Below are positions 5,816 to 27,819 of a stretch of 41,308 nucleotides of DNA, one piece after another. The stretch is from Gemmatimonadota bacterium (GTDB taxonomy: Bacteria; Gemmatimonadota; Gemmatimonadetes; Longimicrobiales; Gaopeijiaceae). The DNA is taken from assembly GCA_030618065.1 (NCBI GenBank), contig JAUXEE010000001.1:1-41308 (forward strand), in the 5' to 3' direction. The stretch's first letter is position 1; each line of letters begins with the position of its first letter. The translations under genes and the position numbers were made by a program. Below the pieces are notes generated by a model that did no database searches, was not told where the DNA came from, and was given only the letters and a program-made list of their open reading frames with translations.

Positions 5816-7087
5816 CTAAACCATCCTGAACCCCTCGTAGTGGTCCCTCAACGCCTCCTTGAGCACCTCCTCAAAGGCTAGGAGTTCGAAGGAGAGTTGG
5901 TCGGCCAGAGATTGGGCGAACCGGGTCCGGTGGAAGCAGCGGGCGAAAACCCTGGGTTCGACCGACCGGCCGCGAAGAAGCATGGCTGCGCGGAAGTTCA
6001 CCACCTCTTCCTTCGCCGCGAGCAGATATACTGGTTCGACTTCGGCCTGCCGGAGGAGTTCCTCGACTTCCGCCCACGTCCCCGGATCCTCCAGATCACC
6101 ATCCACGGTCGAATAGGTGAGAGCGTCCAGAGGGACATCAGCTTCGAATTGTCGGACCTTCCGGGCAGCATCCGGGTCCACGATTACGACCCTCTCCAGC
6201 TCATTCGCCGCCGATACGCGAAGCAACTCCAGGATGGTTTCAGAGAACCGGCTGAAGCCCCCGATGACCAAGACATCCAGCTGGCCGGTATCCTGGAAAT
6301 GGGGGTACAGATGCTCCTCGAATAGGTGGAGGGCTGCAATGCGATCGGTGTTGAAAATAAGAGGCGGGCTGTTCGGTTCCTTTTGATCCTTGATGATCCG
6401 GTTCACGGGCCGGAGGAGAGTGAGGTCAGCCACGTGCACGGCAATGGGGAGATCCGGAACCCGCTCCCGAGCCCCCCACGCCAACTCCAGGTTCGCCATG
6501 TCGTCATTGGAGAGGACTACCATCCGATCGGCTCGATGGAGACAGAGAGCGCCAAGGGTGCCAGGGCGGCGGATGTCGCCTCGAATGAGTTCCGTTCTCC
6601 CATGGTCCAGGAGCTCCGAATCCGTGGCCAGGCTTTCTCCCGAGTCCACCAGGGCAACCGTCCGATCCGGATCGATGGACCGGATAGCGTCCAGGTAGGC
6701 GAGGGCGACCCGTCCCGATCCTGCCAAAACCAGGTGGTCCTTCAGAGCCCGGCGCTGGAGCCAGTCAGGGCGGACCAACCGGAGGAGCGCCTCCACCACG
6801 GCCGTGGTCGTGATGAGCGGGGCCAGGAAGTAGGCGATCCAGAGAGCTGCCCGACCCAGAAAGGGACCTCCCACAGGAGACCCCAGATCCATCCCGCCGA
6901 ACACGAAGAGCCCGCCCGAATAGTAGAGCCAGGCCAAGAATTGCTGATCCTGGGGGTCGGAAATCCCCGTGGTCCTGACACCCGCGAGGAAGGCTCCCAC
7001 CGCCAGGAAGAAGACGAGCACGATTCCCAGGATCCTGAGCTGATTGATCCGACTTCCCCGGCGTGGGACCCGATGTTCCGGACTCAA
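5816..7087 (-). CDS. 2-TM channel-like membrane protein with two RCK/TrkA_N NAD-binding-type domains
   Basis: TM1 is ILGIVLVFFLAVGAFLAGV, followed by the re-entrant-like segment WLYYSGGLFVFGGMDLG and TM2 AALWIAYFLAPLITTTAVV. Two Rossmann GxGxxA/G motifs follow (LVLAGSGRVALAY and LVIGGFSRFSETI). The TTG start overlaps the upstream stop (TTGA). Confidence 0.7.
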   Translation of the reverse strand: MSPEHRVPRRGSRINQLRILGIVLVFFLAVGAFLAGVRTTGISDPQDQQFLAWLYYSGGLFVFGGMDLGSPVGGPFLGRAALWIAYFLAPLITTTAVVEALLRLVRPDWLQRRALKDHLVLAGSGRVALAYLDAIRSIDPDRTVALVDSGESLATDSELLDHGRTELIRGDIRRPGTLGALCLHRADRMVVLSNDDMANLELAWGARERVPDLPIAVHVADLTLLRPVNRIIKDQKEPNSPPLIFNTDRIAALHLFEEHLYPHFQDTGQLDVLVIGGFSRFSETILELLRVSAANELERVVIVDPDAARKVRQFEADVPLDALTYSTVDGDLEDPGTWAEVEELLRQAEVEPVYLLAAKEEVVNFRAAMLLRGRSVEPRVFARCFHRTRFAQSLADQLSFELLAFEEVLKEALRDHYEGFRMV

Positions 7088-7998
7088 GAGTCACCTCCCA
7101 ACGCGGCCCGAGAGATCTCCGCCACCTTCGTCCGGGCTTTCGCCGACAGGCCCGCCACAAAGGGCCCCGAGTGGCTGAGGGTATCGATGGGAGATCCCTC
7201 CAGATTTACCACATCCCCACCGGCCTTCCGGACAATCTCCACCCCTCCCACCAGGTCCCACGGCTCGGCAGGACGGCGACTCCAACGGTTCACGTAAACG
7301 AAGTGACCTTTGGCGGCCTCGACCAGAGCCCAGGCCGGGGACCCCCCGGAAGACCGCACCATCTGGATAGTCCGGGCCTCCCAGGCCCTTTGGAAAGCTG
7401 AGGAAATGGCGCCCCCCCCGGGACTGGGCTGGAGGTGGACCAGAATCTTCTTTTCATCCGGGGCTTGGAAGGGAAGGTCCACTGCGCCGTCTGGTGCATT
7501 CAAGAGCCCCAGGCGGATCAACCGGGGCCGGCCAATGGGAGCTACGTAGGCCACTTCACCGGATGCCGGATTGGCCACGACACACACCATAGGGACCCCA
7601 TCCCGGAAGACACTGATGGTGACCGAGTAGCTCTCGGTCTGAGTCAGAAAGGCCCAGGTCCCGTCGATGGGGTCCATGGCCAGAGAATCCCCCTCGGATC
7701 TCATCCGGCCCCCGCTCTCTTCCCCGGTCATCTCGGCATGAGGGGCGAATTCGGCGAGAGCCCGCCGCACCGTGTCTTCCATGTCCCGTTCGAGCTCGGT
7801 GGCGGGCGATCCGTCTTCCTTCAGCTTGGCCCGGATTCCCACGGCATGGATCAGATTCCGTGCTTTCAAGGCGGCCGAAAGAGCGGCATGCACGCTGAAC
7901 TCGAGCCAGGCATCCGGGTTGGTGGGGTCCCTGGGGGGGAACGGCCTAGCCTCCCGGAGACGGGTCAGGCACCGCGCTTCAAGTGGGCTTAAGTCCAT
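7084..7998 (-). CDS. Inositol monophosphatase-family (IMPase/CysQ/FBPase-like) phosphatase
   Basis: Motifs seen are KEDGSPATELERDMED, TGEESG, AMDPIDGTWAF and PWDLVGG (the family motifs are DPIDGT and WDxxxG). The track ORF begins at a TTG at 8010. The ATG at 7998 lies 4 nt after the upstream stop, so the start is uncertain within 12 nt. Confidence 0.85.
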   Translation of the reverse strand: MDLSPLEARCLTRLREARPFPPRDPTNPDAWLEFSVHAALSAALKARNLIHAVGIRAKLKEDGSPATELERDMEDTVRRALAEFAPHAEMTGEESGGRMRSEGDSLAMDPIDGTWAFLTQTESYSVTISVFRDGVPMVCVVANPASGEVAYVAPIGRPRLIRLGLLNAPDGAVDLPFQAPDEKKILVHLQPSPGGGAISSAFQRAWEARTIQMVRSSGGSPAWALVEAAKGHFVYVNRWSRRPAEPWDLVGGVEIVRKAGGDVVNLEGSPIDTLSHSGPFVAGLSAKARTKVAEISRAALGGDS

Positions 7999-8002
7999 TC
8001 CA

Positions 8003-10594
8003 TTACCCAATGGTTGCCAGAAGGCGATCAGCGAGTTCTTGATCCACGCGGTGGCTTTCTTTCATCCGTTCCAAGGCACTCCGGATCATCGCCGCTTGTG
8101 CCGAGGGCATCCGGTTCACGGCATCGGCGCTCAGCGGCCACCAGCCCACTTCCTGGAAATGGTCCGGCGCCTCGAAGAGGTCCGGGGCCTCGTCGGAATC
8201 GGGACTCACCAGGAATGCACGACTCTCAACCCAGGCGTGATCGGTCTGCCTGGGATCATAGACATAGCCCCCCCCGATGGCATCTGCCGAGGGAGGATCC
8301 TGCCACCCGGCCTCACCTCTCAGGACTCTCTGCAATCCAGCCTCGGCCTCCTCCCCCGGAAGGAGGAAGCCCTTGGGAAGCTCGAGGGAGGGAGAGTCCT
8401 CCACCGAGCCCAGGAGGACCTCGAGCCCTCGTGTCACGCTGCTCTCCCGGAGCACCACCGCCGCCACGGAGAGGTTGGCCCCCCACAACCCCAGGAGCCC
8501 CCGACCCGCGATCCCCGTTCTTCCTCGTGGGTTCAGAGGACGGCCCTGGTCGTCTCGGAACTTGGCCTCACGAGACCCCAAGATTCCAGCCATCCCCTCC
8601 AACTCTTCCGGATCTGCCCACCCACCCTCGGTCTTCGTGCGGTCCTGTGCGAGCACCAGGGGATCGACGTGGTAGGGGGGAGAGTACTCCTCAGGCTCCA
8701 GCATCCACGGCACTTCGTCGATGGAGATCCGCTGTCTGGGCGGGTAGGATGCGGGCCGTTCCGCCCGAATTTTCAGGTGGAAATCATCGGAAACCAGATC
8801 CAGGAGGAGAGCCTCCACGCTGAAGAGGGCGAACATGAGTTGCACTTCGTGGCACTCCCCACGTCCCCGCCGCTTATCGAAGCTGAGGGAGTGGCTGGCG
8901 TACCTGAGCATGGCCACCCTGTACACCAGCCAGTCGTCGTCCTCCTTCAATTCAAAGCAGGCTTTCCGGATCCTCCTCACCGCTCCCAGCATCTTCCGGA
9001 ACCGAAGATCCCATTTAGCGAATCTGAGGTTGTCGGGAAGCTCATCCACGGTCCCTGGGATCCGTTGGCTGAGGAGGTAGTCACTGAACTTTTGAAAACG
9101 GGGGAGATCCTCGAATTCAAAAGCCTTGCTCATGACAAACTTCACATCGTTTTCAAGCTTCGCGAAGTCCAGCTCCACCGGATAGGAACCCGTGTGGGTC
9201 CAGTCGATGAACCAGACATTGTCCCCTTCGTCGCAGATCACATTGGCAAAGTTCAGGTCTCCATGCTGAAGGCAGATCTCAGACTCCAAGGAATCCTCGT
9301 TCCGCGTGGCCAACCGAAACAGTGCCACCAGCTGGTCGAGGTCCACCGAGTTGGGATCTCCGCCGAATTCCTCGATGTACCGTAGGATGTGCTCCCCGTT
9401 CATGCGGAGATATTCCTGCTGCCGCTCCACATGCAGGCCGAAGCTGCGGTAAGGGACAAGGGGGGCCCGTTCCCTGGTGTTCCCGTAGAGCTTCTTAGAG
9501 ACCAGGTCCAGGGTCTTATCCAGAAGCTCGAAGAAACGGGCCACGGATGCCTCGTCCTCGGCTTCCTCGAAATGATCCTGAAGAGTCGTGGGCCGTCCCT
9601 CCATAGCGGCCAGGTCCATCCCCACTCCAAGGGAGTCCCCCTCGGTGACGGGGTACCCGAATGTGGGGACGTGCTTGCCGAAGAAATCCTTCACCTGGTG
9701 GTAGCCGTCCAGCTCCCGCCGCATTTGGCCAAAAACGTCGATCTTTACCACTAAGGGCTCGGTTCGGGCCTCACCCTTCCACCCGTCGGCGATGAAGAGA
9801 AGGCTGCCGCTGTACCCGCCAGCCAAGGGGTGAAGGTAGGTCCGGCTCCAATTCATGCAGATGAGTTGGATGATCCGGGTGGCCTCGTCCGAGAGCCGGT
9901 CCCTAGCCTCCGGGGGATCGATTCTGCAAGGCGTCGCCGCCGGATGCATGAGGGAATCCAACTCGAACCCCACCCACCGAGCCGCTTCCGATAGGTCCAG
10001 GAGCACGTGGACTCCCGAACGTGGGAGATTATGTCGGAGGGTCGCGAAATGGGCTTCCTGGGTGGAACTTCCAACCAGGTGGGGGCAGACGGCGACCTGA
10101 GAGAATCCAAGTACATTGCGGAGGAAGGTGGCAAGGATCTGGACCCGTTTCTCGGTGTGGCAACCCAGGACCAGGAAGGAGAGGGGGGCCTCCCCGGACT
10201 CGACCTGACCTGGCTCAAAACCGGAGACGTCTGCGATGGCCTCCACCAGCGCCCGCCATGCGATCCTGTCGGGAGTGCAGGCCACGACCCGTGCCTTCTC
10301 GGCAATCTCCTCAAGCGGCTCGACCCACTCGGCCATGACCGCTTCCAGCTCTGGGGGCTCTTCTTCTTCCCCGATGGCAACGGCCAGGTCTTGGAGAAGG
10401 ACCAGCTTTGGCCCTTCGGGGCCCGCATCCGCCACCGAGCGGAGAAAGGAGGGCAGTGGGCCTTTACCAAAGGCGCGTCCGGCCCCCATGAGTCGCCCGA
10501 TCTCCCGGGCCCCCAGGTTCATCTGTATTCCCAGGAACTGTTTCTCGGGGCTCAAGATCCCCCGGGTGAGTCCGTCTCCTATTACGATCTGCAT
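8003..10594 (-). CDS. 863-aa multidomain protein: unassigned N-terminal alpha/beta region, APH-like (aminoglycoside/choline kinase fold) kinase domain, and a C-terminal NUDT9-homology (ADP-ribose pyrophosphatase-like) Nudix domain
   Basis: The kinase catalytic loop is LQHGDLNFANV (residues 443-452, nt 9239-9268), followed by FIDW. The NUDT9-like part contains GRPLNPRGRTGIAGRGLLGLWGANLSVAAVVLR (human NUDT9 has [33 protein letters not shown]) and GYVYDPRQTDHAWVESRAF (NUDT9 has GYVDDPRNTDNAWMETEAV). The Nudix box is GFLLPGEEAEAGLQRVLRGEAG. An AGGAAG Shine-Dalgarno sits 4 nt before the ATG. Confidence 0.8.
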   Translation of the reverse strand: MQIVIGDGLTRGILSPEKQFLGIQMNLGAREIGRLMGAGRAFGKGPLPSFLRSVADAGPEGPKLVLLQDLAVAIGEEEEPPELEAVMAEWVEPLEEIAEKARVVACTPDRIAWRALVEAIADVSGFEPGQVESGEAPLSFLVLGCHTEKRVQILATFLRNVLGFSQVAVCPHLVGSSTQEAHFATLRHNLPRSGVHVLLDLSEAARWVGFELDSLMHPAATPCRIDPPEARDRLSDEATRIIQLICMNWSRTYLHPLAGGYSGSLLFIADGWKGEARTEPLVVKIDVFGQMRRELDGYHQVKDFFGKHVPTFGYPVTEGDSLGVGMDLAAMEGRPTTLQDHFEEAEDEASVARFFELLDKTLDLVSKKLYGNTRERAPLVPYRSFGLHVERQQEYLRMNGEHILRYIEEFGGDPNSVDLDQLVALFRLATRNEDSLESEICLQHGDLNFANVICDEGDNVWFIDWTHTGSYPVELDFAKLENDVKFVMSKAFEFEDLPRFQKFSDYLLSQRIPGTVDELPDNLRFAKWDLRFRKMLGAVRRIRKACFELKEDDDWLVYRVAMLRYASHSLSFDKRRGRGECHEVQLMFALFSVEALLLDLVSDDFHLKIRAERPASYPPRQRISIDEVPWMLEPEEYSPPYHVDPLVLAQDRTKTEGGWADPEELEGMAGILGSREAKFRDDQGRPLNPRGRTGIAGRGLLGLWGANLSVAAVVLRESSVTRGLEVLLGSVEDSPSLELPKGFLLPGEEAEAGLQRVLRGEAGWQDPPSADAIGGGYVYDPRQTDHAWVESRAFLVSPDSDEAPDLFEAPDHFQEVGWWPLSADAVNRMPSAQAAMIRSALERMKESHRVDQELADRLLATIG

Positions 10595-10602
10595 TTGGCT
10601 TC

Positions 10603-11931
10603 CTAAAGAAGAACCCCTTCCATGACCAACTCAGCCATTCTCTCGGTCTTCTCCGACGACACTTTCTTCAGCACATCTCTAAACTCCTCGTACTCCGTCT
10701 TCAGCCGCTCGAACTCCCGGGCCGGGAGGAGGAATACGTCGGAGTACGTGAGAGCATGAACCGACGCGGTCCGGCGCTCTCCGAGAAGGAGGGAAAGGTC
10801 ACCGAAGTAGTCTCCAGGACCCAACGTGCCATGACTTTCGCCCTCGGGACCGGAGGTGATCTCTAGCGTTCCCCGGCTCACGAAATAGATCCCGTTTCCA
10901 GGCTCACCCTCTCGGGCAACGATGCTTCCCGGCACGTGGACCTGTGGCTCGAGGGACATGAGGAGGGCATTCCTGAGAGCCGGCCCCGTGTGTCGGAAAA
11001 GGGGCACCTGGTCCATGAGCTCCCGTGTGAGATGAAAGAGCACCTCCAGCCGGATGGACTCGGGAAGATCCTTCAGGAGAGCCGGAGCACTGATCCCCCG
11101 GTAACGATCCCAGATGTAGTCGTAGTAGTTCTGGATCTGCTCGGTGAGATCCTGCGGCAGGTCCCGGCCCCGGAGGTATTGGTTCACTCCCTCTACCCGG
11201 TTCCAGAAAGCGGCTTTGGACGAGTCGATGCTGCTGACCAGGGAGGCGACGCTCCCGATGATGAGGGCATACATGGAGGCCCCCACCACCATCACCACGA
11301 TGGCGTACACGTATTCGATCGTTCCAGTGGGGACGATATCCCCATACCCCACCGTCGTGGTGGTCACAAAACTCCAATAGATGGAGCGCAGGTACTGCTG
11401 GCCGATTCCCAGGTCGGTTATGCCGGCCTGGGCAGCCCAGGAATCAGCGGACAAACCTTCCATGACCGCGATTGCGAACCACCCGCAGGCCACCCAGTGG
11501 ATGAGAAGAAACACAACGACCAGGAGACGGGAGATGCGCAGGTACCCCGCATTGGTAGTTCTGGACCGTTGCCACCTGCGGAAGATGACCTGGAGACGGA
11601 TCACACGACCAAGACGAAGGAGCCTCAGGAGGAGGACGACGGGGAGACCTCCCAGAGCCAGGCCAGCCCAGGGCAGAAGAAGAACATCAAAGGGAAGGGT
11701 GGAGATCAGGTCCCAGGGGAGCATGCCCCTTCGGTACCGGCTGGAGATTCGACTCGGTTCACGAACCTCAGAGCCATACTCCCTGAAGGTCGTTCTGAAG
11801 TTGAGCCGAATATCCAGGAAGAACACCAGATCCAGGGCGTACACCAGGAGGCTGCCCCATAGGCCTACCTCCCTCACGAAGGCCAGTTGGAAGGGGACAA
11901 GCAGCCCGGTGACCACCACCAGAACGGCCAC
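10603..11931 (-). CDS. Voltage-sensor-type, cyclic-nucleotide-binding-domain potassium channel (SthK/KAT1-like 6-TM + C-linker + CNBD)
   Basis: The selectivity filter is TTTVGYGD and the S4 segment is LLLRLLRLGRVIRLQVIFRR. A C-linker is followed by a CNBD with phosphate-binding cassette FGDLSLLLGERRTASV. The listed start is a GTG, but conserved N-terminal sequence continues upstream of it (see findings), so the 5' end is uncertain. Confidence 0.9.
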   Translation of the reverse strand: MAVLVVVTGLLVPFQLAFVREVGLWGSLLVYALDLVFFLDIRLNFRTTFREYGSEVREPSRISSRYRRGMLPWDLISTLPFDVLLLPWAGLALGGLPVVLLLRLLRLGRVIRLQVIFRRWQRSRTTNAGYLRISRLLVVVFLLIHWVACGWFAIAVMEGLSADSWAAQAGITDLGIGQQYLRSIYWSFVTTTTVGYGDIVPTGTIEYVYAIVVMVVGASMYALIIGSVASLVSSIDSSKAAFWNRVEGVNQYLRGRDLPQDLTEQIQNYYDYIWDRYRGISAPALLKDLPESIRLEVLFHLTRELMDQVPLFRHTGPALRNALLMSLEPQVHVPGSIVAREGEPGNGIYFVSRGTLEITSGPEGESHGTLGPGDYFGDLSLLLGERRTASVHALTYSDVFLLPAREFERLKTEYEEFRDVLKKVSSEKTERMAELVMEGVLL

Positions 11932-12023
11932 GAGAATGTCCCATCGAGCCCGGAAGTTAGACCCCTCCTGGATCAGCCTGCCACCGGCCTCATCGGCCTC
12001 AGGCGAAAGACCACTCGAGGGGG

Positions 12024-12356
12024 TCAGAAGCCCTCCAGCGCCTCGGCCTCGGTAGAGAACACCGAAAAGATGGTGCTGAAGCCGGAGATCTCGAAGACTT
12101 CCTGAACGGTGTCGTTGAGTCCGAACATCCTCAACTGTCCACCCACGCCCTTGAGCTTCTTGGCCGTGGCCAGGAGAATCCTGAGGCCGGCACTGCTGAT
12201 GTAGTTCAACTTTTCAAAATCCACCACGATCCGGACTTGGCCCCCATCGGCCAGGGCGTCGAAATGGGCATGGGCGTCCGGGGCGGTGTTGGTGTCCAGA
12301 TTCCCTTCCAGCTGGACGATGGTCACCTCTCCTGCGCTGCGATCATGGATTTCCAT
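12024..12356 (-). CDS. Single-domain STAS protein, RsbV/SpoIIAA-like anti-sigma-factor antagonist
   Basis: The product is MEIHDRSAGEVTIVQLEGNLDTNTAPDAHAHFDALADGGQVRIVVDFEKLNYISSAGLRILL..., with a phosphorylatable Ser in the ISSAGL motif. A GGAGGA sits 5 nt before the ATG at 12356. The track ORF starts at an upstream GTG at 12383. Confidence 0.85.
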   Translation of the reverse strand: MEIHDRSAGEVTIVQLEGNLDTNTAPDAHAHFDALADGGQVRIVVDFEKLNYISSAGLRILLATAKKLKGVGGQLRMFGLNDTVQEVFEISGFSTIFSVFSTEAEALEGF

Positions 12357-12414
12357 AACTGTCCTCCGCTCGTCGGTTGTCACGCAAATGTCTTCTGGGG
12401 CAGAGTCCCGCCCG

Positions 12415-14106
12415 CTAGCTCTCGATGTACTTCACCACGGTCACGACGTTTTCGTTGATCCGTCTATGGTAGTCGACTTCATCCATAATCTTTTCCACCA
12501 AATGAATCCCCAGGCCTCCCACTTCCCTCTCCTCCAGCGATTCGGAGGTGTCCGGATTCACGCTCCCAAAGGGGTTGAACGGATGGCCATCGTCACGGAT
12601 GGTCGCAGAAATCCTCTTCTCGCCCAACTCGATATGAACGTGGATCTCATGTTCGGTCTCGTCTTCGTATGCGTACGAGACCACGTTGTTCAGAAGGTCG
12701 TCCAGAGCCAGATTCATGGCCCGCATGGCGGGGACCGGGAGCTGGTTCCGCTGGGAGAACTCCTCGAAGGCCTCGACGGCCCTCCCAATCTCCTGAACCT
12801 GGTTCTTCAGGACCAGATCCAAGCGCCGCTGGTCTGCGTCTCCCGTTGGGTCACCAAAATAGTGGACGGCCAGGACGGTAACGTCATCGGCCTGATCGGC
12901 CTCGGCCTGAAATCGCCAGACGTCGTTGGCCGAGGCTTTCACCATGTCCTCCACCGTGACGAAGTCGGTTGACTCCAGGACCGTCACGAGGCGGTCTTCC
13001 TCGTACAGCTCGCCCTCCGGGTCCATGGCTTCCGTCACCCCGTCCGTGTACAGGAAGGCTTTGTCGCCACACCCCAGCTCCTCTTCGTCCTCCCCGTACG
13101 CCATTCCCTCCACGGCCCCCACCACGGGCCCGTGCCGCTTGTCCAACCGAACCAGGGTCCCGTCGGCCCGCTTCAGGTAGGGTGGATTATGGCCTGCGTT
13201 GCAGTACTTGAAATATCCCGTCTGAAGGTTCAGAACGGCCAGCCAGAGCGTCACGAACATGGACGAGTCGTTTTTGAAGGCCAACTCGTCGTTCACGTGG
13301 GTCATGATGCTGGCGGGGGAGAGGTCGTTGGTCGCCCTGGACTTGATGAGGGTTTTGGTGACGGCCATGAAGAGTGCGGCGGGAACACCCTTTCCTGAAA
13401 CGTCGCCCACACAGAAGAGGAACTGGTCATCGTCCACCAGAAAGAAGTCGTAGAAGTCCCCGCCCACCTCGCGGGCCGGTTCCAAGGTGGCGAAGACGTC
13501 GAAATCCGTCCGATGGGGGAAGGCCGGGAAGTCCAGCGGGAGCATGCTCAGCTGGATCTCCCTGCCGATGTTCAGCTCTCCCTCCATGCGCTCCTTTACC
13601 GAGGTAGTGCGCCGGAGATTGTCCAAGGACTCCTGGAGTTCGAGGTTCTTGACCTCTAGCTCCTCGGCCTTGGCCTGTATCTCGGCCGTCAACTCGTCCT
13701 TGCTCTTGCTCGAAAGGACCGCTCGGACGGCAGAGAGTTGGTCCTGTCTGGGGAGGCTCTCCATGGGGAGCCTGATGATGGCCGTGAGGGTGGGATCCCC
13801 CTCGGCACCATTGTCCTGCTCGACCGAAGAGCAGAACCGCTCCACGAGCCCGGGGATCTCGGGGGAGTACTTTCCCTGAAACCGGAAGGCGAGGCGGGAA
13901 CCGATTCGCTCGTCGTCGACCCTGATCTCCAGGGAGGGTGAGGTGTTGTGACCCAAGAGGTCCCGGCCCACCATGGAGACCATGGTGGCCAGCCGGGTGG
14001 CCAGAAGTTCCTGCTGGGTAAGGGACAGGACTGCCGACCGGACTTTTCGGCGAGCCTCCAAAACCTCGTGAAGGTTCCCGATCCTCAGGGTGCCCAGGGA
14101 CGTCAT
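12415..14106 (-). CDS. Fused RsbU-like PP2C (SpoIIE-family) phosphatase and RsbW-like HATPase_c_2 serine kinase, with a degenerate N-terminal partner-binding domain and a coiled coil
   Basis: The PP2C part reads GREIQLSMLP...AREVGGDFYDFF...CVGDVSGKGVPAALFMAVTKTLI...NAGHNPP...LYTDGVTEA. The C-terminal kinase part has N-box LDDLLNNVVSYA, G1 RDDGHPFNP and G2 GGLGIHLV. The start ATG overlaps the RsbX stop by 1 nt. Confidence 0.85.
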   Translation of the reverse strand: MTSLGTLRIGNLHEVLEARRKVRSAVLSLTQQELLATRLATMVSMVGRDLLGHNTSPSLEIRVDDERIGSRLAFRFQGKYSPEIPGLVERFCSSVEQDNGAEGDPTLTAIIRLPMESLPRQDQLSAVRAVLSSKSKDELTAEIQAKAEELEVKNLELQESLDNLRRTTSVKERMEGELNIGREIQLSMLPLDFPAFPHRTDFDVFATLEPAREVGGDFYDFFLVDDDQFLFCVGDVSGKGVPAALFMAVTKTLIKSRATNDLSPASIMTHVNDELAFKNDSSMFVTLWLAVLNLQTGYFKYCNAGHNPPYLKRADGTLVRLDKRHGPVVGAVEGMAYGEDEEELGCGDKAFLYTDGVTEAMDPEGELYEEDRLVTVLESTDFVTVEDMVKASANDVWRFQAEADQADDVTVLAVHYFGDPTGDADQRRLDLVLKNQVQEIGRAVEAFEEFSQRNQLPVPAMRAMNLALDDLLNNVVSYAYEDETEHEIHVHIELGEKRISATIRDDGHPFNPFGSVNPDTSESLEEREVGGLGIHLVEKIMDEVDYHRRINENVVTVVKYIES

Positions 14107-14690
14107 CAGGCGTACCTCATGGCGATACAGGACACGTCGTCGAAGGTCCGCCCGAAACGCTTCACCATGGTCCGGACGATGGTCTGGACCGAGTGGATCC
14201 GCATCTCAGGGTATTCGGATACCGGCGTCCGGTCGCTGATCCCGTCGGAGTGCAGGATCAAGATGTCATCGTCGCGCAAGGTCATCCGGTCTACTCTGGG
14301 GACCCTCATCTGCTTCCCCAGGGTGCCCGGCACCGACGAAAAAGTGCGGGCCTCTTTCCCCAGAATCCGGAATACCGTATTCCCGACCCCCGAATAGGCG
14401 AGATTACCGGTCTTCTCGTCCACGATGCAGACGGCTCCGACGGCCCCGATGGTCTTCTTCAATCCTTCGTGAAGAAGGGTCATCGTCGTTCCGGGGTCGT
14501 CTGTCCAGCGCCCTTTCACCGCTGCCAGCCCGGCAGAGCAGGCTTCATGGGCATGGCGACCGTGGCCCAGGCCGTCAATGAGGATGGCACAGGTGAGCCC
14601 CCCCCTTTTCTCGATGAGGGTGCCATCTCCACTCAACCTCTCACCCACACACGGGCGGACGAACGCTGCGGCGTGGAGAGTGAGCTCCAT
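14106..14690 (-). CDS. rsbX: RsbX-like small PP2C feedback phosphatase
   Basis: The 194-aa product contains GDG...LIDGLGHGRHAHEAC...AVCIVD...LHSDGISD, which are SpoIIE/PP2C metal-binding motifs in a single-domain protein. It sits directly after RsbT, as in RsbRSTX modules. Confidence 0.8.
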   Translation of the reverse strand: MELTLHAAAFVRPCVGERLSGDGTLIEKRGGLTCAILIDGLGHGRHAHEACSAGLAAVKGRWTDDPGTTMTLLHEGLKKTIGAVGAVCIVDEKTGNLAYSGVGNTVFRILGKEARTFSSVPGTLGKQMRVPRVDRMTLRDDDILILHSDGISDRTPVSEYPEMRIHSVQTIVRTMVKRFGRTFDDVSCIAMRYA

Positions 14691-14693
14691 GGC

Positions 14694-15083
14694 CTATGCC
14701 CAGATCCGAGCCGTCACCGTGGTCCCGGAACCCGGCTCGGATCGGATACTGAACTCGTCCATCAGTCGGCGCACGCCGGGAAGGCCGAGGCCCAGCGTTC
14801 CGCTGGAGCTGAAGTGGTCTTCCAGCGCTTCCTTCACGTTCTCGATTCCGGGCCCCCGATCCGTGGCAACGACCTCCAAGCCCTCCCGACCGGACTCGGT
14901 CACCGTCCTGATGATCACCGCCCCCTTACCGCCGGCGTACTTGATGATGTTCCGGGCAAGCTCTGAGATCGCGGTGGACACCTTTTGCTGCTTCACCTGA
15001 TCGAATCCCAATTCGGCGGCCCGGCGGTTTCCCTCCAGGACGGCCCGGGCGACGTCCCGATCTTCAGTAATCGGAATTCTCAT
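14694..15083 (-). CDS. rsbT: RsbT-like stressosome serine kinase (HATPase)
   Basis: The product is MRIPITEDRDVARAV...ISELARNIIKYAGGKG...ATDRGPGIEN...GTLGLGLPGVRRLMDEF. The ATG at 15083 forms an ATGA overlap with the RsbS stop. Confidence 0.85.
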   Translation of the reverse strand: MRIPITEDRDVARAVLEGNRRAAELGFDQVKQQKVSTAISELARNIIKYAGGKGAVIIRTVTESGREGLEVVATDRGPGIENVKEALEDHFSSSGTLGLGLPGVRRLMDEFSIRSEPGSGTTVTARIWA

Positions 15084-15484
15084 CTGTCCGAGTCCCAAGA
15101 GTCACCCGCATCGACGTCCCGCAGTTCATCGAGCTTCTCGAAGGCATCGTCCAGGGTCAAGACCCCGTTCAGCCCATCCACGTCCGCATCGAGATCCACA
15201 AGGGCTGATACCATCCCCGGCCTCATGCCCGCCAAAACGGATCGGGCCCCCAGTAGGGAAGCCATGTTCATGGTGTCTCTGAGATCGGCCAGGTCTCCTG
15301 GATCGAGGACCCCCAAGGCGGAAAGGTCGATAATGACCCCCGTGGCCTGGGATCGCTGGACGGCCCCCAGGAGGTCGTGTCGGAACTGGGCAAGGACAGC
15401 GGGCTCGAAGTCCACCTGGACCGAGGCCACAACGGTCCCCTGAGACACCCGCAAGGGAACCCGGGGAACCGAATCACCTGACAT
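15080..15484 (-). CDS. rsbS: RsbS-like single STAS stressosome scaffold protein
   Basis: The 134-aa product contains VPRVPLRVSQGTVVASVQVDF...GVIIDLSALGVLDPGDLADLRDTMNMASLLGARSVLAGMRPGMVSALVDL. This is collinear with B. subtilis RsbS ([49 protein letters not shown]). Confidence 0.85.
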   Translation of the reverse strand: MSGDSVPRVPLRVSQGTVVASVQVDFEPAVLAQFRHDLLGAVQRSQATGVIIDLSALGVLDPGDLADLRDTMNMASLLGARSVLAGMRPGMVSALVDLDADVDGLNGVLTLDDAFEKLDELRDVDAGDSWDSDR

Positions 15485-16397
15485 CGCCGTCCGTGGCCGG
15501 TCGGATTTCCAGCCCCTGTCTACGGAAGGCTCCAGCCAGAGCGTCTTGCATGGTGGCGGTGGTTTTCATGCGTCCTACATCGATCCCGAGTTCCACGATG
15601 GTCTGGGCAATGGCGGGGGACACCCCGGAGATGGTGGCCTCACATCCCATGAGCCGGGTTGCCCGGGTAATGTTGATGAGGTAATTAGCCACCGCCGTGT
15701 CCACCACCCCCACGCCGCTGATGTCCAGGATAAAGATTCGGGCCCGGGTTTCGGCAATCTTCGTCAGACCGGCGTTCATGATGTCCTGTGCCCGATGGGA
15801 ATCGATGATCCCGACGATGGGGAGGAGAAGGACACCCTCCCAGATCTCCGTCACGGGAGTGGACATCTCCATGAGAGATTTGGCCTGGGCTGTAAGCGCT
15901 TCCTCGGTCACGGCGTTGTAGGTATGCACGACCACCGCGGTTTCCAGGTGCATCAGTTTGGTGATAATGGATGAGATTTGGACCCACTCTTCGGATGGGA
16001 CCCCCAGTTGACCGGCCACTTCACCAATCACGATCAAGAAGTGATTGATTCCGGCGAAATATGCACTTAGAGGGAGTCCGATTCGGGCATGCACCTCCCC
16101 GATTTCCACCCGACGCCGGACGTAGTTTTCATCGATCTTCCCCGATAAAAAGACCTCCCAAGCCCTCTCCTGGAGACCCCGGGCCCGTTCCATGACTGCC
16201 GGATCGGAGAAGAAGAGTTCAAACTCCGGGTAGGTCTTTAGCCAGCCGTACCACTGGCTGATCATCTCATCCAGATGGTCCCCCACCCGCTCTCCGAAGG
16301 TCCGGAGAACCTCCAGCTCTTCCTGCTTCAGACCGTAGAGGGCCAGCAGACCCTCCGGGGTCATGGTGTCCATTCCTGAAGCATGGGATCCGGTCAT
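15474..16397 (-). CDS. rsbR: RsbR-like stressosome sensor: N-terminal globin-coupled-sensor/protoglobin-like domain plus C-terminal STAS
   Basis: The N-terminal part reads ISQWYGWLKTYPEFELFFSDPAVMERARGLQERAWEVFLSGKIDENYVRRRVEIGEVHARIGLPLSAYF, a protoglobin signature with a candidate proximal His. The C-terminal part reads LLPIVGIIDSHRAQ...ILDISGVGVVDTAVANYL, an RsbR-type STAS with Ser/Thr at both known phospho-sites. The start forms an ATGA overlap with the upstream gene. Confidence 0.8.
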   Translation of the reverse strand: MTGSHASGMDTMTPEGLLALYGLKQEELEVLRTFGERVGDHLDEMISQWYGWLKTYPEFELFFSDPAVMERARGLQERAWEVFLSGKIDENYVRRRVEIGEVHARIGLPLSAYFAGINHFLIVIGEVAGQLGVPSEEWVQISSIITKLMHLETAVVVHTYNAVTEEALTAQAKSLMEMSTPVTEIWEGVLLLPIVGIIDSHRAQDIMNAGLTKIAETRARIFILDISGVGVVDTAVANYLINITRATRLMGCEATISGVSPAIAQTIVELGIDVGRMKTTATMQDALAGAFRRQGLEIRPATDGDVR

Positions 16398-18322
16398 TCT
16401 CCTTCTCCTCCATTCTCGGTGCTTTCAGATTCGACGTACTTGCCTTCCAGCATCCTCAGGGCCAGTTCGAAGCCTGCCTGTAAGGTCCCTTCGGCGTGGA
16501 CGTTCTCCAACTCCAGCCCCGCGTCCACAAGACCTCCCGCAGCGGCAGCCTGCATTCCCGTGATGATGACCCGACAACCCAGCAGTTGGGCGGCCCGAGC
16601 GGTCCCTTGCAACCCCTCGGCCACTTCGGGCGAAATATCCGGGACTCCGGTGAGGTCCAGGATCGCCACCCTTGCACCCCATTCGTGGATACGAGCCAGG
16701 AGTCGTTCCCGGGTGGAAGCGATCCTGTCAGCGTCCATTTCACCCACTAGAGGTACCATGACGGCGTCATCCCGCAGGGGAATGACGGGGGTGGAAAGAG
16801 CATCGATGGCACGGGCCTGCCGGTCCACCAATTCCTGGATGGAGCGGCGCATCTGATCGAAACTCGACGCCAGTTCCCCGATCTCGTCACCGCGGGTGAC
16901 GTCGACCTCGATATCCAGACGGCCTTGGGCCAGATGGGCGGCGCTAGCGGACAGGACCTTGATGGGTCGTGTCAGACTTCCGGCGAACCAAAAGGCCAGG
17001 ACCCCCAGGAGCGGAATCAAAATCGCCAGCCAAATCATCATTCTCACCCTGAGCTCGGCGACGGCCTGGAGGGCTTCTGCGGCGTCGATCTCGCTCATCA
17101 GCACCCAGTCCAGCTCCGGGAGGTTCAGAGGCCTGAAGCTGGAGAAGACCCTCACTCCCCTGTAATCCTCGAAGGAGGCCGTGCCCGATTCCCCCCTTTG
17201 CGCCAGTTCGGTACCCTCGGTTCGAATCTCCTGAAGTCCGATGGCGCTCTCCAACGACTCGATGGCCCGGATGGTGGGCTCGGGGACCCCGGCCTCCCGG
17301 ATCATGGCCGTGTACCCCTCCGGATCCTCCAGGAGGAAACGGGACTCGGTGCGGAGCCGGTGGTCGCCGCCCACCAGATAGGTCTCCCCCGTTTCCCCCA
17401 GTCCCATGGACGACCAGGCGCCCCCGCTAGTCATGATGTCGTTGATGCGGCCGATGGGGAGTTGGAAGATGAGGACGCCGACGGGCTCATTCCCGTCGAA
17501 GACCGGTGACGACACGAAGGAGGCTCGATCCGAGTAGGAAGGGATATAGGACTGGAAGTCCTCCACCCGGATGAAGTCCCTGGCCCCGGAGCCGACAGCC
17601 GCACGGAAAGCGTCGGCGATGTTCGCATCCCGATACGGGCCGTTCAGAAGGGAGGTCCCGAAGTCCACTTCCTTGAAGACCGAGTAGACGATGCGCCCCG
17701 ATTCCCGGTCTACCAAGAAGATATCGTAGTAGCCGAATCGCTCCAGATAGGACCGGAATATGGGATGGTACCGCCCGTGGGCCTGGTTGTAACCTGCCGC
17801 CTCCGGAGCACGGTCCTGCAAGTGCTTCGAACCCACTTCGTAGGGGTTCGAGCTGACGTAGAGACTCTGGAGGGCCCGTCCCGTCTCATCCTCGGGCCAG
17901 AATTCCGAGAGGTTTCGGGGCTCCAGGAGGTTGGCATTGAGGCGGGGGAGGAACTCGTCCTGGTAGTAGAGCCTGAGCTCCTGCTCGCCCTCGGATCGGT
18001 TCCAACCGGACCGGGAGAGATTCCGGGTCAATTCTTCCGCAGCCCCCGAGAACTCCCGAAGGGCCGAGGCGACGGTGGGGTCCTCGGAGAGGGTCACCAT
18101 CTGATCGACGATAAGCTGAAGGTAGTCTTCGATCCGGTCTCCCTTCAGCTCCCGGATCGACGTGAGTTGATCGAAAGCCTGCTCTTCGAGAGTGGTGACC
18201 CCCAGACCGTAGGACAGGGCCCCCATTGCCCCCATGGAGATGAAGGCCACAGCGGCCAGGACCGAAAGAACCCTGGCCCGGATCGAAACTCCTCGCTTTT
18301 CCACCGATGAAGCTCGAGTCAT
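16394..18322 (-). CDS. Membrane-bound RsbR paralogue: TM, dCache-like periplasmic sensor, TM, HAMP, RsbR-type STAS
   Basis: The N-terminal TM is VLSVLAAVAFISMGAMGAL. The Cache-type core is GYYDIFLVDRESGRIVYSVFKEVDFGTSLLNGPY. The second TM is MIWLAILIPLLGVLAFWFA. The HAMP segment is LTRPIKVLSASAAHLAQGRLDIEVDVTRGDEIGELASSFDQM. The STAS segment STPVIPLRDDAVMVPLVGEMDADR...ILDLTGVPDISPEVA...LLGCRVIITG is collinear with the STAS of the adjacent RsbR. Confidence 0.8.
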   Translation of the reverse strand: MTRASSVEKRGVSIRARVLSVLAAVAFISMGAMGALSYGLGVTTLEEQAFDQLTSIRELKGDRIEDYLQLIVDQMVTLSEDPTVASALREFSGAAEELTRNLSRSGWNRSEGEQELRLYYQDEFLPRLNANLLEPRNLSEFWPEDETGRALQSLYVSSNPYEVGSKHLQDRAPEAAGYNQAHGRYHPIFRSYLERFGYYDIFLVDRESGRIVYSVFKEVDFGTSLLNGPYRDANIADAFRAAVGSGARDFIRVEDFQSYIPSYSDRASFVSSPVFDGNEPVGVLIFQLPIGRINDIMTSGGAWSSMGLGETGETYLVGGDHRLRTESRFLLEDPEGYTAMIREAGVPEPTIRAIESLESAIGLQEIRTEGTELAQRGESGTASFEDYRGVRVFSSFRPLNLPELDWVLMSEIDAAEALQAVAELRVRMMIWLAILIPLLGVLAFWFAGSLTRPIKVLSASAAHLAQGRLDIEVDVTRGDEIGELASSFDQMRRSIQELVDRQARAIDALSTPVIPLRDDAVMVPLVGEMDADRIASTRERLLARIHEWGARVAILDLTGVPDISPEVAEGLQGTARAAQLLGCRVIITGMQAAAAGGLVDAGLELENVHAEGTLQAGFELALRMLEGKYVESESTENGGEGE

Positions 18323-21714: not shown

Positions 21715-22971
21715 ATGCAAGCAGACCCCGTTTTCAATGGTTTGGACACCTTCTGGATTCTCTTTGCGGCCTTCCTGGTATTTTTCATGCAGGCCGGCTT
21801 CGGAATGCTGGAGGCAGGTCTGGTTCGCACAAAAAATGCCGCGAATGTCCTCACCAAGAACGTCCTGGACTTCTCCTTCGCGGCCCTCGGCTACTTCGCC
21901 TTCGGTTACGCCATCATGTATGGGACCGAAGGCCTCCTGGTGGGCACCGAGGGCTGGTTCCTTTCTGGCGTAACGTCTCCGGTGGACGGCGTACCGGTGG
22001 AGGCTTTCTGGCTATTCCAGGTCGTTTTTGCCGGGGCTGCAGCCACAATCGTGGCCGGGGCAGTTGCCGAGCGGATGAAATTCGTCGCCTATCTGATCTA
22101 TTCATTCATCATCAGCGCCTTCATTTACCCGGTCGTGGGCCATTGGGTATGGGGTGGTGGCTGGCTGAGCAGTTTGGGATTCCACGACTTCGCCGGCTCC
22201 ACGGTGGTCCATGCCGTCGGGGGAATCAGCGCACTGGTAGGCGCCTGGCTCCTTGGCCCCCGCATTGGACGCTTCAACGAGAATGGCACACCCAACGTCA
22301 TCGCCGGCCACAGTCTCCCTCTGGCTACCATCGGAGTCTTCATCCTCTGGTTTGGATGGTACGGCTTCAACGCCGGGTCCACTCTAGGATTTGGAGAACC
22401 AGATGTGGTGGCGCGAATAGCCGCCAACACCACTCTGGCACCGGCAACCGGGGCGCTGGCTGGCCTCATGACTGCTTGGGTGAAATGGGGTAAGCCCGAC
22501 CTGACCCTGGCCCTGAACGGGGCCCTGGCCGGCCTGGTGGGAATCACCGCTCCCTGTGCAGTGGTAGGTATGGGATCTTCAATCTGGATCGGCTTGGTCG
22601 GTGGGGTCCTGGTGGTCTTCGGGATCGACTGGATGAACCGAATCCGCATCGATGACCCGGTTGGCGCTTTCCCCGTCCATGGTCTTGTGGGCATCTGGGG
22701 CACGCTTGCCGTGGGGATCTTCGGCCAGGCCTCCCTGGGGGCTCCCGCCGACGGCCTCTTTTACGGGGGTGGATTCGGACAGCTGGGCATCCAAACCCTT
22801 GGCCTGGCAGCCTGTCTGACATTCACAGCCGTGTCCATGTGGATCGTGTTTAAGGGCATCGAGGCGGTGGTGGGTTTGCGGGTCTCTCGGGAAACGGAGT
22901 TGAGGGGCCTAGATCTCGACGAACACGGTCTGGAGTCCTATAGCGGCTTCCAGATCTTCACCACGGAATAG
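21715..22971 (+). CDS. amtB: Ammonium transporter (Amt family)
   Basis: The product contains FWILFAAFLVFFMQAGFGMLEAGLVRTKNAANVLTKN...DFAGSTVVHAVGG...GWYGFNAGS...AFPVHGLVGIWGTL, which are canonical Amt motifs. A GAGGA sits 5 nt before the ATG. Confidence 0.95.
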   Translation: MQADPVFNGLDTFWILFAAFLVFFMQAGFGMLEAGLVRTKNAANVLTKNVLDFSFAALGYFAFGYAIMYGTEGLLVGTEGWFLSGVTSPVDGVPVEAFWLFQVVFAGAAATIVAGAVAERMKFVAYLIYSFIISAFIYPVVGHWVWGGGWLSSLGFHDFAGSTVVHAVGGISALVGAWLLGPRIGRFNENGTPNVIAGHSLPLATIGVFILWFGWYGFNAGSTLGFGEPDVVARIAANTTLAPATGALAGLMTAWVKWGKPDLTLALNGALAGLVGITAPCAVVGMGSSIWIGLVGGVLVVFGIDWMNRIRIDDPVGAFPVHGLVGIWGTLAVGIFGQASLGAPADGLFYGGGFGQLGIQTLGLAACLTFTAVSMWIVFKGIEAVVGLRVSRETELRGLDLDEHGLESYSGFQIFTTE

Positions 22972-27803: not shown

Positions 27804-27819
27804 GAGTCGGGAACCTGAC

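Follow-up and report, generated by a model that had tools for sequence, protein, structure and literature searches.

The genome of a Gemmatimonadota bacterium (assembly GCA_030618065.1, contig JAUXEE010000001.1, of which positions 1 to 41,308, i.e. 41,308 nucleotides, were analyzed and are termed the window in the following) contains eleven open reading frames (ORFs), g1 to g11, on the minus strand at 5816-18322 (Table 1). They make up a real signalling cluster with three layers: a stressosome as input (g1-g5), a partner switch consisting of phosphatase, kinase and STAS protein (g6-g7) and an output (g8-g11). When 65 related loci are compared, the constant partner of the switch is g9, a gene for a large three-domain protein, together with the gene for an IMPase-family phosphatase (g10 in the window), and not the channels. 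The input modules are swappable and consist either of a stressosome or of a sensor PP2C-kinase equipped with SBP, dCache and PAS domains. The upstream half, featuring globin-coupled RsbR, RsbS, RsbT, RsbX and a PP2C-type protein, is of an already known kind; what is new here is a cluster built around the uncharacterised g9 family, and this points to an undescribed signalling route. In the reading that we favor, and to which we assign about an even chance of being correct, a swappable sensor feeds a partner switch that controls g9 and the IMPase-family phosphatase, with the channels as lineage-specific effectors.

The 65 g9 loci were retrieved by a profile scan covering one genome per species and carry the labels of some ten phyla (Gemmatimonadota, Acidobacteriota, Planctomycetota, Gamma-, Delta- and Alphaproteobacteria, Myxococcota, Bacteroidota, Acidimicrobiia and others). 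The eleven window proteins were mapped onto them by tblastn at thresholds that miss divergent STAS proteins. The IMPase gene resides directly downstream of g9 on the same strand in 37 of 49 loci and anywhere in the locus in 49 of 59. A g7-like STAS gene is present in 34 of 48 loci, and either such a gene or a g6-like PP2C gene in 39 of 49. The full RsbR/S/T set was encountered in 13 of 43 loci, sometimes rearranged, the CNBD channel in 24 of 49 and the RCK protein in 12 of 39. Thirty of the 39 g7-like STAS matches are situated within 2.4 kb upstream of g9, a portion that corresponds to 17% of the sampled space (binomial P ~4e-16, with the loci treated as unrelated). The STAS gene directly precedes a channel-g9 pair on the same strand in 10 of 48 loci, and in at least 12 loci it directly precedes g9 with no intervening channel. 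Some gene arrangements differ from that of the window. In L041 and L044, both labelled Deltaproteobacteria, the order is channel-IMPase-g9-RsbR-RsbS-RsbT-RsbX-PP2C/RsbW, while in L010 the stressosome genes are divergent from a channel-g9 block and in L008, L013 and L059 the STAS gene is divergent from channel-g9-IMPase-RCK. The four divergent layouts imply that co-transcription is not essential to the link between the switch and g9. An earlier note on this DNA, made from the sequence alone, had connected the stressosome and the switch with the genes downstream and had let this connection stand or fall with the conservation of the neighbourhood; the survey speaks decisively for conservation. 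The same note had regarded ion channels as the output, and this part does not survive as a statement about the conserved output, given the limited occurrence of the channel and RCK genes and the at least 12 loci in which STAS abuts g9. In three loci without a switch (L023, L045 and L055) the immediate neighbours of g9 are devoid of Pfam matches. Locus L069 contains an extra GAF-PP2C gene between channel and g9 as well as a second IMPase gene (L069:11353-12612 and 16420-17358).

Domains of the window proteins were assigned with Pfam and NCBIfam, and motifs by inspection of the sequences. g9 comprises an apparently active kinase between two probably non-catalytic domains. The kinase residues K284, H444, D446, N451 and D464, i.e. 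the catalytic set of APH and choline kinases with its beta-3 Lys, the H-x-D-x-x-x-x-N catalytic loop and a metal-binding Asp, are invariant in all of the 120 listed homologues, and the nearest solved folds identified by Foldseek are maltokinase 4u94 and APH(3'')-IIb. The C-terminal part matches NUDT9 (PDB 1q33, E = 8e-15 in phmmer) and TRPM2 (E = 3.5e-11), and in Foldseek its top matches are a TRPM2 chanzyme and NUDT9, with E values from 1e-10 to 1e-9 for 1qvj and TRPM2. NUDT9 cap and Nudix core are both present, as the homologues carry PF25969 (NUDT9_N) and PF00293, and g9 shares with NUDT9 and the NUDT9-homology (NUDT9-H) domain of TRPM2 the cap as well as the motifs 'NPRGRTG..GRGLLG.WG.N' and 'DPRQTDHAW'. 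The Nudix box reads RVLRGE compared with REFGEE in NUDT9 and RILRQE in human TRPM2, and thus follows the same pattern as the latter. Among the 120 listed homologues the Glu of 'RE' is replaced by Val in 102 and retained in none, and the first Glu of 'EE' is variable, such that an intact Nudix box of the form G x5 E x7 R-E-U-x-E-E-x-G-U with its catalytic glutamates was not found among these members of the family. The NUDT9-H domain of human TRPM2 binds ADP-ribose and does not hydrolyse it. A function of the g9 NUDT9-H domain as a sensor rather than a hydrolase is backed by the family-wide degeneration of the box. g9 differs from TRPM2 in that its NUDT9-H domain shares a polypeptide with a kinase and a domain of the nicotinamidase fold and not with a channel, the channels being encoded by separate, optional genes.

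The N-terminal domain of g9 had gone unnoticed when the protein was described as a kinase with a NUDT9-homology domain, a description that is correct for the remainder. Its structure is predicted with confidence (pLDDT 90, pTM 0.88). Of the top 40 Foldseek matches, 30 are PncA nicotinamidases and the rest other isochorismatase-like hydrolases (E ~1e-5 to 5e-4; target-normalised TM-scores 0.51-0.76), and the domain is thereby assigned to the nicotinamidase/isochorismatase fold. According to motif mapping by inspection, it is devoid of the catalytic Cys of G-x-A-T-D-x-C-V and instead has G144-C-H-T-E-K-R150-V, with Arg150 conserved in at least 90%. Long Foldseek alignments with TRPM2 had prompted the idea that this part resembles the N-terminal ADP-ribose site of TRPM2 (SLOG/MHR1-2); it was abandoned as the confident model matches nicotinamidases and isochorismatases. 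The families to which the two flanking domains belong handle nicotinamide and ADP-ribose, and we infer from this that g9 is related to the two products of NAD+ cleavage. The g9 family is coherent, with 353 matches at E <= 1e-5, of which the 120 listed share at least 50% identity, mostly over the full length, and an architecture of TCAD9/APH, NUDT9_N and NUDIX common to all. In a library clustered at 50% identity, 98 g9 representatives were found at E <= 1e-30, about 25-30 of them full-length. Some relatives of about 600-650 residues (P0269, P0271, P0279, P0282 and P0285) consist of N-domain and kinase only (query residues 3-600) and are devoid of NUDT9-H. The latter domain may be accessory to a core formed by N-domain and kinase. 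In L011 a second, divergent g9 paralogue with 26% identity takes the place of the IMPase gene (L011:12897-14330).

g10 exhibits the Inositol_P fold together with motifs for metal and substrate binding, and none of the specific NCBIfam equivalogs (HisN, CysQ, SuhB) reaches its cut-off. In most loci a gene of this type is found within a few bases of g9. As g10 retains its catalytic motifs and is so closely juxtaposed to g9, the two proteins fit an opposing kinase/phosphatase pair.

The partner switch appears complete in itself. In g6, the PP2C and GHKL motifs are intact, and residues 463-562 match RsbW models of NCBIfam below their cut-offs. The STAS protein g7 has a Ser in the sequence 'NYISSAGL' ('ISSAGL'), the context of a phosphorylatable Ser. 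PP2C phosphatase, GHKL kinase and STAS protein with Ser, which together make a partner switch, co-occur across the loci. In every locus with enough flank the STAS gene is accompanied by an RsbW-type kinase, either fused or standalone. The switch is therefore complete without g9, and a role of g9 as the STAS kinase, which was considered, is not needed. The first ~130 residues of g6 were matched by tblastn in 15 of 15 stressosome loci and in none of the 23 PP2C loci without a stressosome, in which the match starts at residue 111-189, or later where the end of a contig truncates the gene. Because this N-terminal domain is confined to loci with a stressosome, it is a candidate for the RsbT receiver. 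A Response_reg match indicative of a REC domain was not obtained for g6.

The window harbors a second sensor PP2C-RsbW-kinase fusion of 1240 amino acids on the opposite strand, which had been overlooked in the earlier note. Homologues of this protein stand in for the stressosome beside STAS-channel-g9 in L002, L008 and L059. Since the window carries both this fusion, whose homologues replace the stressosome elsewhere, and the stressosome itself, two phosphatase/kinase inputs may converge on the single STAS protein g7 in this organism. The fusion is preceded by an ORF for 386 amino acids (26643-27803, plus strand) without Pfam match, the product of which has a signal peptide-like N-terminus, ends with '...GFYF' and looks like an outer-membrane beta-barrel; it recurs together with the large sensor kinase in L008, L059 and L061.

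Regarding the input of the cluster, g1 and g2 both combine an N-terminal sensor with a C-terminal STAS domain, as is characteristic of RsbR, and both STAS domains match the YtvA/RsbR-type model of NCBIfam. Identity to g1 amounts to 52-59% in stressosome-bearing loci from Gemmatimonadota-labelled and unclassified metagenome-assembled genomes (MAGs) and to 44-49% in L041 and L054. The position of g3 between RsbR and RsbT is kept in 13 loci; its STAS match is weak. The domain assignments of the earlier note agree essentially with those from Pfam and NCBIfam. RsbT-like g4 shows the N-box and G-box motifs and is followed by RsbX-like g5, giving the order R-S-T-X that is known from RSTX modules. By eye, residues ~57-64 of g3 read 'VLDPGDL' at the position of the phosphorylatable Ser of canonical RsbS, and the homologue in L005 (L005:6262-6756) reads 'VMDREEF'. 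If this reading is correct, g3 would represent a stressosome clade that has no RsbS phosphorylation site and yet retains RsbX. In L005 (6753-7856) and L069, RsbT and RsbX are apparently fused into one protein of about 368 amino acids.

The arrangement of the eleven genes is compact. Going downstream, g1 and g2 overlap by 4 nucleotides (nt) and g2 and g3 by 11 nt; g3 and g4 overlap by 4 nt when g4 starts at ATG 15083 and by 19 nt when it starts at TTG 15098. A gap of 3 nt separates g4 from g5, g5 and g6 overlap by 1 nt, and the 58-nt gap between g6 and g7 contains GGAGG ahead of ATG 12356, the start of g7. A gap of 92 nt follows if g8 begins with the first canonical start, GTG 11931. g8 and g9 are 8 nt apart, g9 and g10 overlap by 8 nt (TTG 8010 as start of g10) or are separated by 4 nt (ATG 7998), and g10 and g11 overlap by 4 nt. 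Coordinates, gene order and junctions are all as previously given. Simple consensus scans revealed neither sigma-70-like nor terminator-like sites in the 58-nt or the 92-nt gap, and overall the number of terminator and promoter sites did not exceed that expected for shuffled sequence. An internal terminator or promoter that divides the operon at one of these gaps, which had been named as a threat to the link between the STAS and channel genes, can accordingly be rejected. Rfam models did not match anywhere in the window at gathering thresholds. In agreement with what had been noticed before, domains of sigma factors, response regulators, GGDEF/EAL proteins and cyclases are not present in the large ORFs of the window that were scanned, with small ORFs partly covered, nor did the scanned ORFs contain any integrase or transposase domain.

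Table 1. Genes of the cluster and of its surroundings in the 41,308-nt window
Feature	Position	Strand	Predicted product	Support
g1	16394..18322	-	membrane sensor RsbR paralogue, dCache_1-HAMP-STAS, 642 aa	Pfam HAMP 57.6, dCache_1 48.2, STAS 35.4 bits
g2	15474..16397	-	globin-coupled RsbR, Protoglobin + STAS, 307 aa	Pfam Protoglobin 91.5, STAS 49.8 bits
g3	15080..15484	-	RsbS-like single STAS protein, 134 aa	Pfam STAS 18.3 bits (below 22.6 cut-off); NCBIfam YtvA-type STAS E = 4.7e-6
g4	14694..15098	-	RsbT-like GHKL serine kinase, 134 aa (TTG 15098) or 129 aa (ATG 15083)	Pfam HATPase_c_2 55.9 bits
g5	14106..14690	-	RsbX-like single-domain PP2C, 194 aa	Pfam SpoIIE 30.5 bits; directly after RsbT
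g6	12415..14106	-	N-terminal domain (~1-135) + PP2C + RsbW-type serine kinase, 563 aa	Pfam SpoIIE 172.9 bits (residues 225-416), HATPase_c_2 83.1 bits (residues 437-559)
g7	12024..12356	-	RsbV/SpoIIAA-type single STAS protein, 110 aa, predicted substrate of g6	Pfam STAS 67 bits; NCBIfam anti-sigma-factor antagonist 82.7 bits, above cut-off
g8	10603..11976	-	voltage-sensor-type CNBD K+ channel, probable CTG start 11976	Pfam Ion_trans 81.9, cNMP_binding 68.4 bits
g9	8003..10594	-	nicotinamidase-fold domain (1-245), APH/ELK-type kinase (~250-600), NUDT9-homology domain (~605-863), 863 aa	Pfam TCAD9 84.1 bits, APH 31.1 bits, NUDIX; Foldseek
g10	7084..8010	-	IMPase-family phosphatase, 308 aa	Pfam Inositol_P 79.7 bits; 'DPIDGT' and 'WDLVGG' motifs
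g11	5816..7087	-	membrane protein with RCK (TrkA_N) domain(s), 423 aa	Pfam TrkA_N in two stretches, 49.6 bits
amt	21715..22971	+	ammonium transporter	Pfam Ammonium_transp 427.6 bits; homologues in 17 g9 loci (13 at 68-95%, 4 at 43-44% identity)
PII	22988..23320	+	PII-family protein, 110 aa	Pfam P-II 66.7 bits; homologues in 15 g9 loci
glnA	23329..24765	+	glutamine synthetase	Pfam Gln-synt_C 408.6, Gln-synt_N 101.8 bits; homologues in 14 g9 loci
SPFH	24800..26092	+	SPFH/Band-7 (flotillin-like) protein, 430 aa	Pfam Band_7 92.1 bits; homologues in 19 g9 loci
c12	26153..26536	+	small HopF/AvrPphF-like protein (putative ADP-ribosyltransferase family), 127 aa	Pfam AvrPphF-ORF-2 26.9 bits (cut-off 25)
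second fusion	27682..31404	+	sensor PP2C-RsbW-kinase, SBP_bac_3-dCache-PAS-PP2C-HATPase_c_2, 1240 aa	Pfam; periplasmic SBP_bac_3 and dCache sensors

Following the reading that we favor, a stress, gas or ligand signal would cause the release of RsbT from the stressosome, RsbT would activate the phosphatase of g6, and g7 would be dephosphorylated. Either g7 or the freed RsbW-type domain would then bind g9 and alter its kinase activity. The opposing pair of g9 and g10 would act on a small molecule, possibly one derived from ADP-ribose or NAD, or on a protein, and the channels and the RCK protein, where present, would adjust the K+ flux within the same response. Several points weigh against this reading. 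The step leading from the STAS protein to g9 is drawn from gene neighbourhood only. In about 20% of the loci with at least 5 kb of flank, for example L046, neither a STAS nor a PP2C gene is present, so that the switch would be an optional input and not an obligate partner of g9. Residues 1-201 of g6, which include the candidate RsbT receiver, do not match any Pfam family even at E <= 1, RsbU_N included. The full-length model of g9 is of moderate confidence only (mean pLDDT 65). The loci compared are MAG contigs, many of them from related Gemmatimonadota and therefore phylogenetically non-independent, and some labels or binning may be wrong. Finally, the view of the genome is that of a 41-kb window, and a sigma factor or cyclase may be encoded at a distance.

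A different role of the channels has to be weighed, namely that they are the primary output and that the CNBD channel, the RCK protein or both respond by direct gating to the phosphorylation state of g7, resulting in changes of membrane potential or K+ flux. This was the original proposal. g8 has the six transmembrane segments of a voltage-sensor pore, the TVGYG filter and a cyclic nucleotide (cNMP) cassette, FGDLSLLLGERRTASV, that contains the Arg typical of CNBD-family K+ channels. MloK1, SthK and LliK are bacterial representatives of this family. g8 resembles them in the six-segment Ion_trans domain, the Arg-rich S4, the filter, a C-linker-like segment and the cassette Arg, and deviates from them in that the cassette reads GD instead of GE throughout the g8 family and that one g8 sub-clade is embedded in the switch/g9 cluster. 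A cyclase partner was not detected among the scanned window ORFs, just as had been stated before. The STAS gene is located directly upstream of and on the same strand as channel-g9 in the 10 loci mentioned above, and the spacer between STAS and channel genes is short and free of terminator-like sites, all of which would suit direct gating. The spacing of 92 nt applies to GTG 11931; the true gap is probably no longer than 47 nt. The frame of g8 is open upstream of GTG 11931, and in the two closest relatives (L002 and L003) the codon aligned with CTG 11976 is the GTG start; L007 likewise has CTG at this position. Moreover, the 15 codons between CTG 11976 and GTG 11931 are conserved at the protein level (I-x-E-x-S...R-x-x-W-D) and encode the 'FRxxWD' start of S1, and most homologues have 457-460 residues that span the whole extended query. 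It is the alignment of CTG 11976, the codon conservation and the lengths of the homologues that lead us to the shorter gap.

The occurrence of the channels argues in the other direction. The CNBD channel is missing from about half of the g9 loci, with STAS abutting g9 in at least 12. Channel relatives with 48-50% identity on long contigs have neither g9 nor STAS as a neighbour, and a relative with 55% identity resides in a complete cluster. We considered a specialised ligand cassette in the channels recruited to the cluster and rejected it, as recruited and stand-alone channels have the same cNMP cassette; there is accordingly no sign of a specialised regulatory interface. g11-like RCK proteins are limited to Gemmatimonadota-labelled MAGs (12 of 39 loci) and occur twice without a CNBD channel (L005 and L025). 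g11 had been listed as a two-transmembrane tandem-RCK protein among the ion channel-like ones. The RCK part of this description holds, with TrkA_N matched in two stretches and being the sole domain detected; the channel part is questionable, as inspection revealed no TVGYG filter as required for an RCK-gated K+ channel of the MthK/Kch type, the stretch between two hydrophobic segments reading 'VFGGMDLG'. This region (residues ~50-100, WLYYSGGLFVFGGMDLG) looks like the pore helix of a K+ channel in which the filter has degenerated, and g11 may be related to RCK-gated channels while being non-selective or non-conducting. In the gammaproteobacterial g9 locus L028, an MscS-type channel fused to a CNBD (L028:5210-7237) is encoded between a glutamine synthetase-like and an IMPase gene. 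It hints at CNBD-regulated ion flux as an output; as a recurrent alternative effector it was dismissed, because it was found in this single locus. Taken together, we consider it unlikely that the channels are the primary target. Direct gating by STAS is less likely than control of g9, the constant partners being g9 and the IMPase gene, and our best model has g8 and g11 as lineage-specific additions to the output.

It is also improbable, in our view, that the cluster is a canonical switch in which a sigma factor with its gene elsewhere in the genome is sequestered by the RsbW-type domain of g6 and g8-g11 are merely co-transcribed or regulon genes. The match of g6 residues 463-562 to RsbW models and the score of g7 above the cut-off for anti-sigma-factor antagonists would be in line with such a switch, and the window covers 41 kb of the genome. 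PP2C/RsbW fusions are, on the other hand, known to work via a STAS protein on targets other than sigma factors (PMC8256260). No sigma factor is present in the scanned ORFs of the window, and none was recognised by Pfam, tblastn or inspection among the 17 most widely shared neighbour clusters of the 65 loci. Adjacency to g9 and the IMPase gene, furthermore, persists through rearrangements and changes of the input across phyla, for which membership in a regulon offers no explanation.

HsbR of Pseudomonas aeruginosa is a dual kinase/phosphatase that has a STAS protein, HsbA, as its output. In SypE from Vibrio fischeri, RsbW-type kinase and PP2C reside in a single polypeptide as in g6 and act on the single-domain STAS output SypA (PMC8256260). 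Both SypE and HsbR are REC-controlled by a phosphorelay; g6 is devoid of REC, and its N-terminal domain co-occurs with the stressosome. The candidate targets differ as well: here they are an enzyme pair and channels, there regulators of biofilms or flagella. STAS proteins with non-sigma or as yet unknown targets have been reported for SypE/SypA and BtrUVW (PMC8256260), and a STAS-regulated glycosyltransferase has been described in Anabaena (PMC13555669). With regard to the input, the cluster shares with the RSTX modules of Gram-negative bacteria such as Vibrio vulnificus and V. brasiliensis the globin-STAS RsbR, RsbS, RsbT and RsbX encoded right after RsbT, the lack of an adjacent sigma factor, a downstream signalling protein only a few bases away and an output of the PP2C class (PMC9237108, PMC4976288). 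The downstream modules named in a survey of globin-coupled RSTX systems are PP2C phosphatases, cyclic di-GMP enzymes and phosphorelays (PMC9237108). Here, an extra membrane-bound dCache-HAMP-STAS paralogue is present, PP2C and RsbW-type kinase form one polypeptide with a STAS protein of its own encoded next to it, and beyond the switch lie g9, the IMPase, the CNBD channel and the RCK protein, which are outside the described outputs. In the open-access literature including bioRxiv we found no description of a g9-IMPase output, of optional CNBD/RCK partners or of a link with ammonium assimilation, SPFH and HopF-like genes (see below), and the previous statement that ion channels plus a nucleotide-sensor enzyme have not been described downstream of a stressosome switch likewise holds for this literature. 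Stressosome targets outside the Firmicutes are largely unknown, with sigma-B, PP2C phosphatases, cyclic di-GMP enzymes and phosphorelays as the described outputs. The presence of the same output genes after the switch across phyla, despite a change of the input, provides a concrete candidate for a non-transcriptional stressosome output. g9 itself represents an unstudied family that combines an intact kinase with two apparently inactivated domains of nicotinamide- and ADP-ribose-related families, one of them degenerate in the manner of the human TRPM2 domain. For the field of bacterial ion channels, the cluster offers a physiological setting for one clade of CNBD K+ channels.

Clustering of all ORFs from the 65 loci brought to light a wider neighbourhood that had not been noticed before. 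Recurrent neighbours of g9 are the ammonium transporter gene amt, the glutamine synthetase gene glnA and genes for PII and SPFH/Band-7 proteins, together with those for a standalone RsbW-type kinase and for the small HopF-like protein c12. The genes amt, PII, glnA, SPFH and c12 are each found in 14-19 g9 loci, compared with 0-2 loci for seven control genes from the window. In the relatives, amt, PII, glnA and SPFH are usually co-directional with the stressosome and switch genes. L005, L016 and L025 feature an (amt)-PII-glnA-SPFH-c12-g1...g7-g9-IMPase arrangement on a single strand, and L069 contains a complete co-directional supercluster of the L005-type layout with amt and channel and without a called c12 gene. 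Shorter combinations are amt-glnA-SPFH-g9-IMPase without a switch in L046 and g9-IMPase-amt-PII in L023; in L028, amt, a short glutamine synthetase-like gene, the MscS-CNBD channel gene and an IMPase gene are followed by g9 at a distance of about 1.9 kb. In the window, the nitrogen block is located a few kb off on the opposite strand, with a MacB-like gene (18597-21569) in between, which looks like the result of an inversion. In view of the neighbourhood of amt, PII, glnA, SPFH and the HopF-like gene, the physiological task is most likely to bring ammonium assimilation under stress into line with K+ and ionic homeostasis. The tie to amt, PII, glnA and SPFH would suggest a post-translational layer in the control of nitrogen or ion homeostasis in little-studied phyla such as Gemmatimonadota, Acidobacteriota and Planctomycetota. 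An SPFH/Band-7 gene is found directly upstream of g9 in L046 (8684-9976) and L048 (8538-9830), and in L065 (6631-9165) a protein with major-vault shoulder and repeat domains abuts g9. Because an SPFH or SPFH-like scaffold protein adjoins g9 in these three loci, there is a hint that g9 is recruited to membrane microdomains.

Homologues of c12 are present in 16 g9 loci and adjoin g9 or the IMPase gene in eight of them (L017, L020, L022, L027, L029, L030, L042 and L044). Thirteen of 15 family members match AvrPphF-ORF-2, and a profile of the family compared with PDB 1s21 (HopF1) yielded E = 7.6e-7. HopF proteins are mono-ADP-ribosyltransferases that need a conserved Arg and a conserved Asp (R72 and D174 in HopF1; PMC8150971). 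c12, which exceeds the Pfam threshold, aligns with 1s21 over an Arg-containing 'YRxT' motif and over 'RLGD.L.QGG'; the Arg (R22) is invariant in the family, and the alignment leaves the equivalence of the Asp unfixed. It differs from HopF, a secreted type III effector, by its smaller size (127 amino acids), its cytoplasmic location in free-living bacteria and its place beside housekeeping genes. Judging from domain families, c12 and the nicotinamidase-like and NUDT9-like domains of g9 would give the neighbourhood an NAD+/ADP-ribose theme. This theme can be extended to a further reading, in which an undescribed bacterial ADP-ribose/NAD+ signalling circuit is made up of g9, the IMPase-family phosphatase and the HopF-like protein. 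The HopF-like enzyme would consume NAD+, the inactivated nicotinamidase-like and NUDT9-like domains of g9 would read both cleavage products in a TRPM2-like logic, g9 would phosphorylate a target and the IMPase-like enzyme would reset it. The partner switches would serve as gates, and Amt, PII, glutamine synthetase and, where present, K+ channels as the output. We regard a circuit of this kind as a doubtful proposition.

An anti-phage or conflict system operating on NAD+/ADP-ribose, in which the HopF-like ADP-ribosyltransferase and g9 sense or make a nucleotide signal and the channel acts as a depolarising effector of abortive infection, is very unlikely. The TCAD9 domain was first described in conflict systems. 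The TCAD9 match of g9 would fit, as would the ADP-ribosyltransferase-family protein nearby and the weak resemblance of the g8 CNBD to those of Pycsar effectors. The match is, however, confined to positions 300-428 of the 429 positions of the profile, i.e. to the C-terminal part of the model, none of the PADLOC models matches g6, g7, g9, g10 or g11, and only weak matches were obtained with the CNBD of g8. Besides, the scanned ORFs are free of integrase and transposase domains, and the cluster is embedded in housekeeping genes for ammonium assimilation, with a synteny that is stable from phylum to phylum and unlike that of a variable defence island. Coincidental synteny of three unrelated units (stressosome and switch; channel-g9-IMPase-RCK; amt-glnK-glnA) in one lineage is strongly disfavoured, since the association, despite the many related Gemmatimonadota MAGs among the 65 loci and the position of the nitrogen genes of the window on the other strand beyond the MacB-like gene, recurs with varied gene orders under Acidobacteriota, Planctomycetota, Gamma- and Deltaproteobacteria, Myxococcota, Bacteroidota and Acidimicrobiia labels and the seven control genes are found in no more than 0-2 loci.

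Two features of the nitrogen genes deserve mention. In an informal comparison, the PII protein of the window has 'QMFRGV' in the T-loop region, at the position which we take to be that of the uridylylated Tyr of canonical GlnB/GlnK, and the sequence suggests a non-uridylylatable PII variant. Amt is 73-78% identical to the window protein in loci of differing phylum labels (L001, L010, L023, L024, L046, L048, L056, L059 and L061), whereas g9 is only 40-65% identical there; this contrast could be due to strong constraint on Amt, to horizontal transfer of the cluster or to mis-binned contigs.

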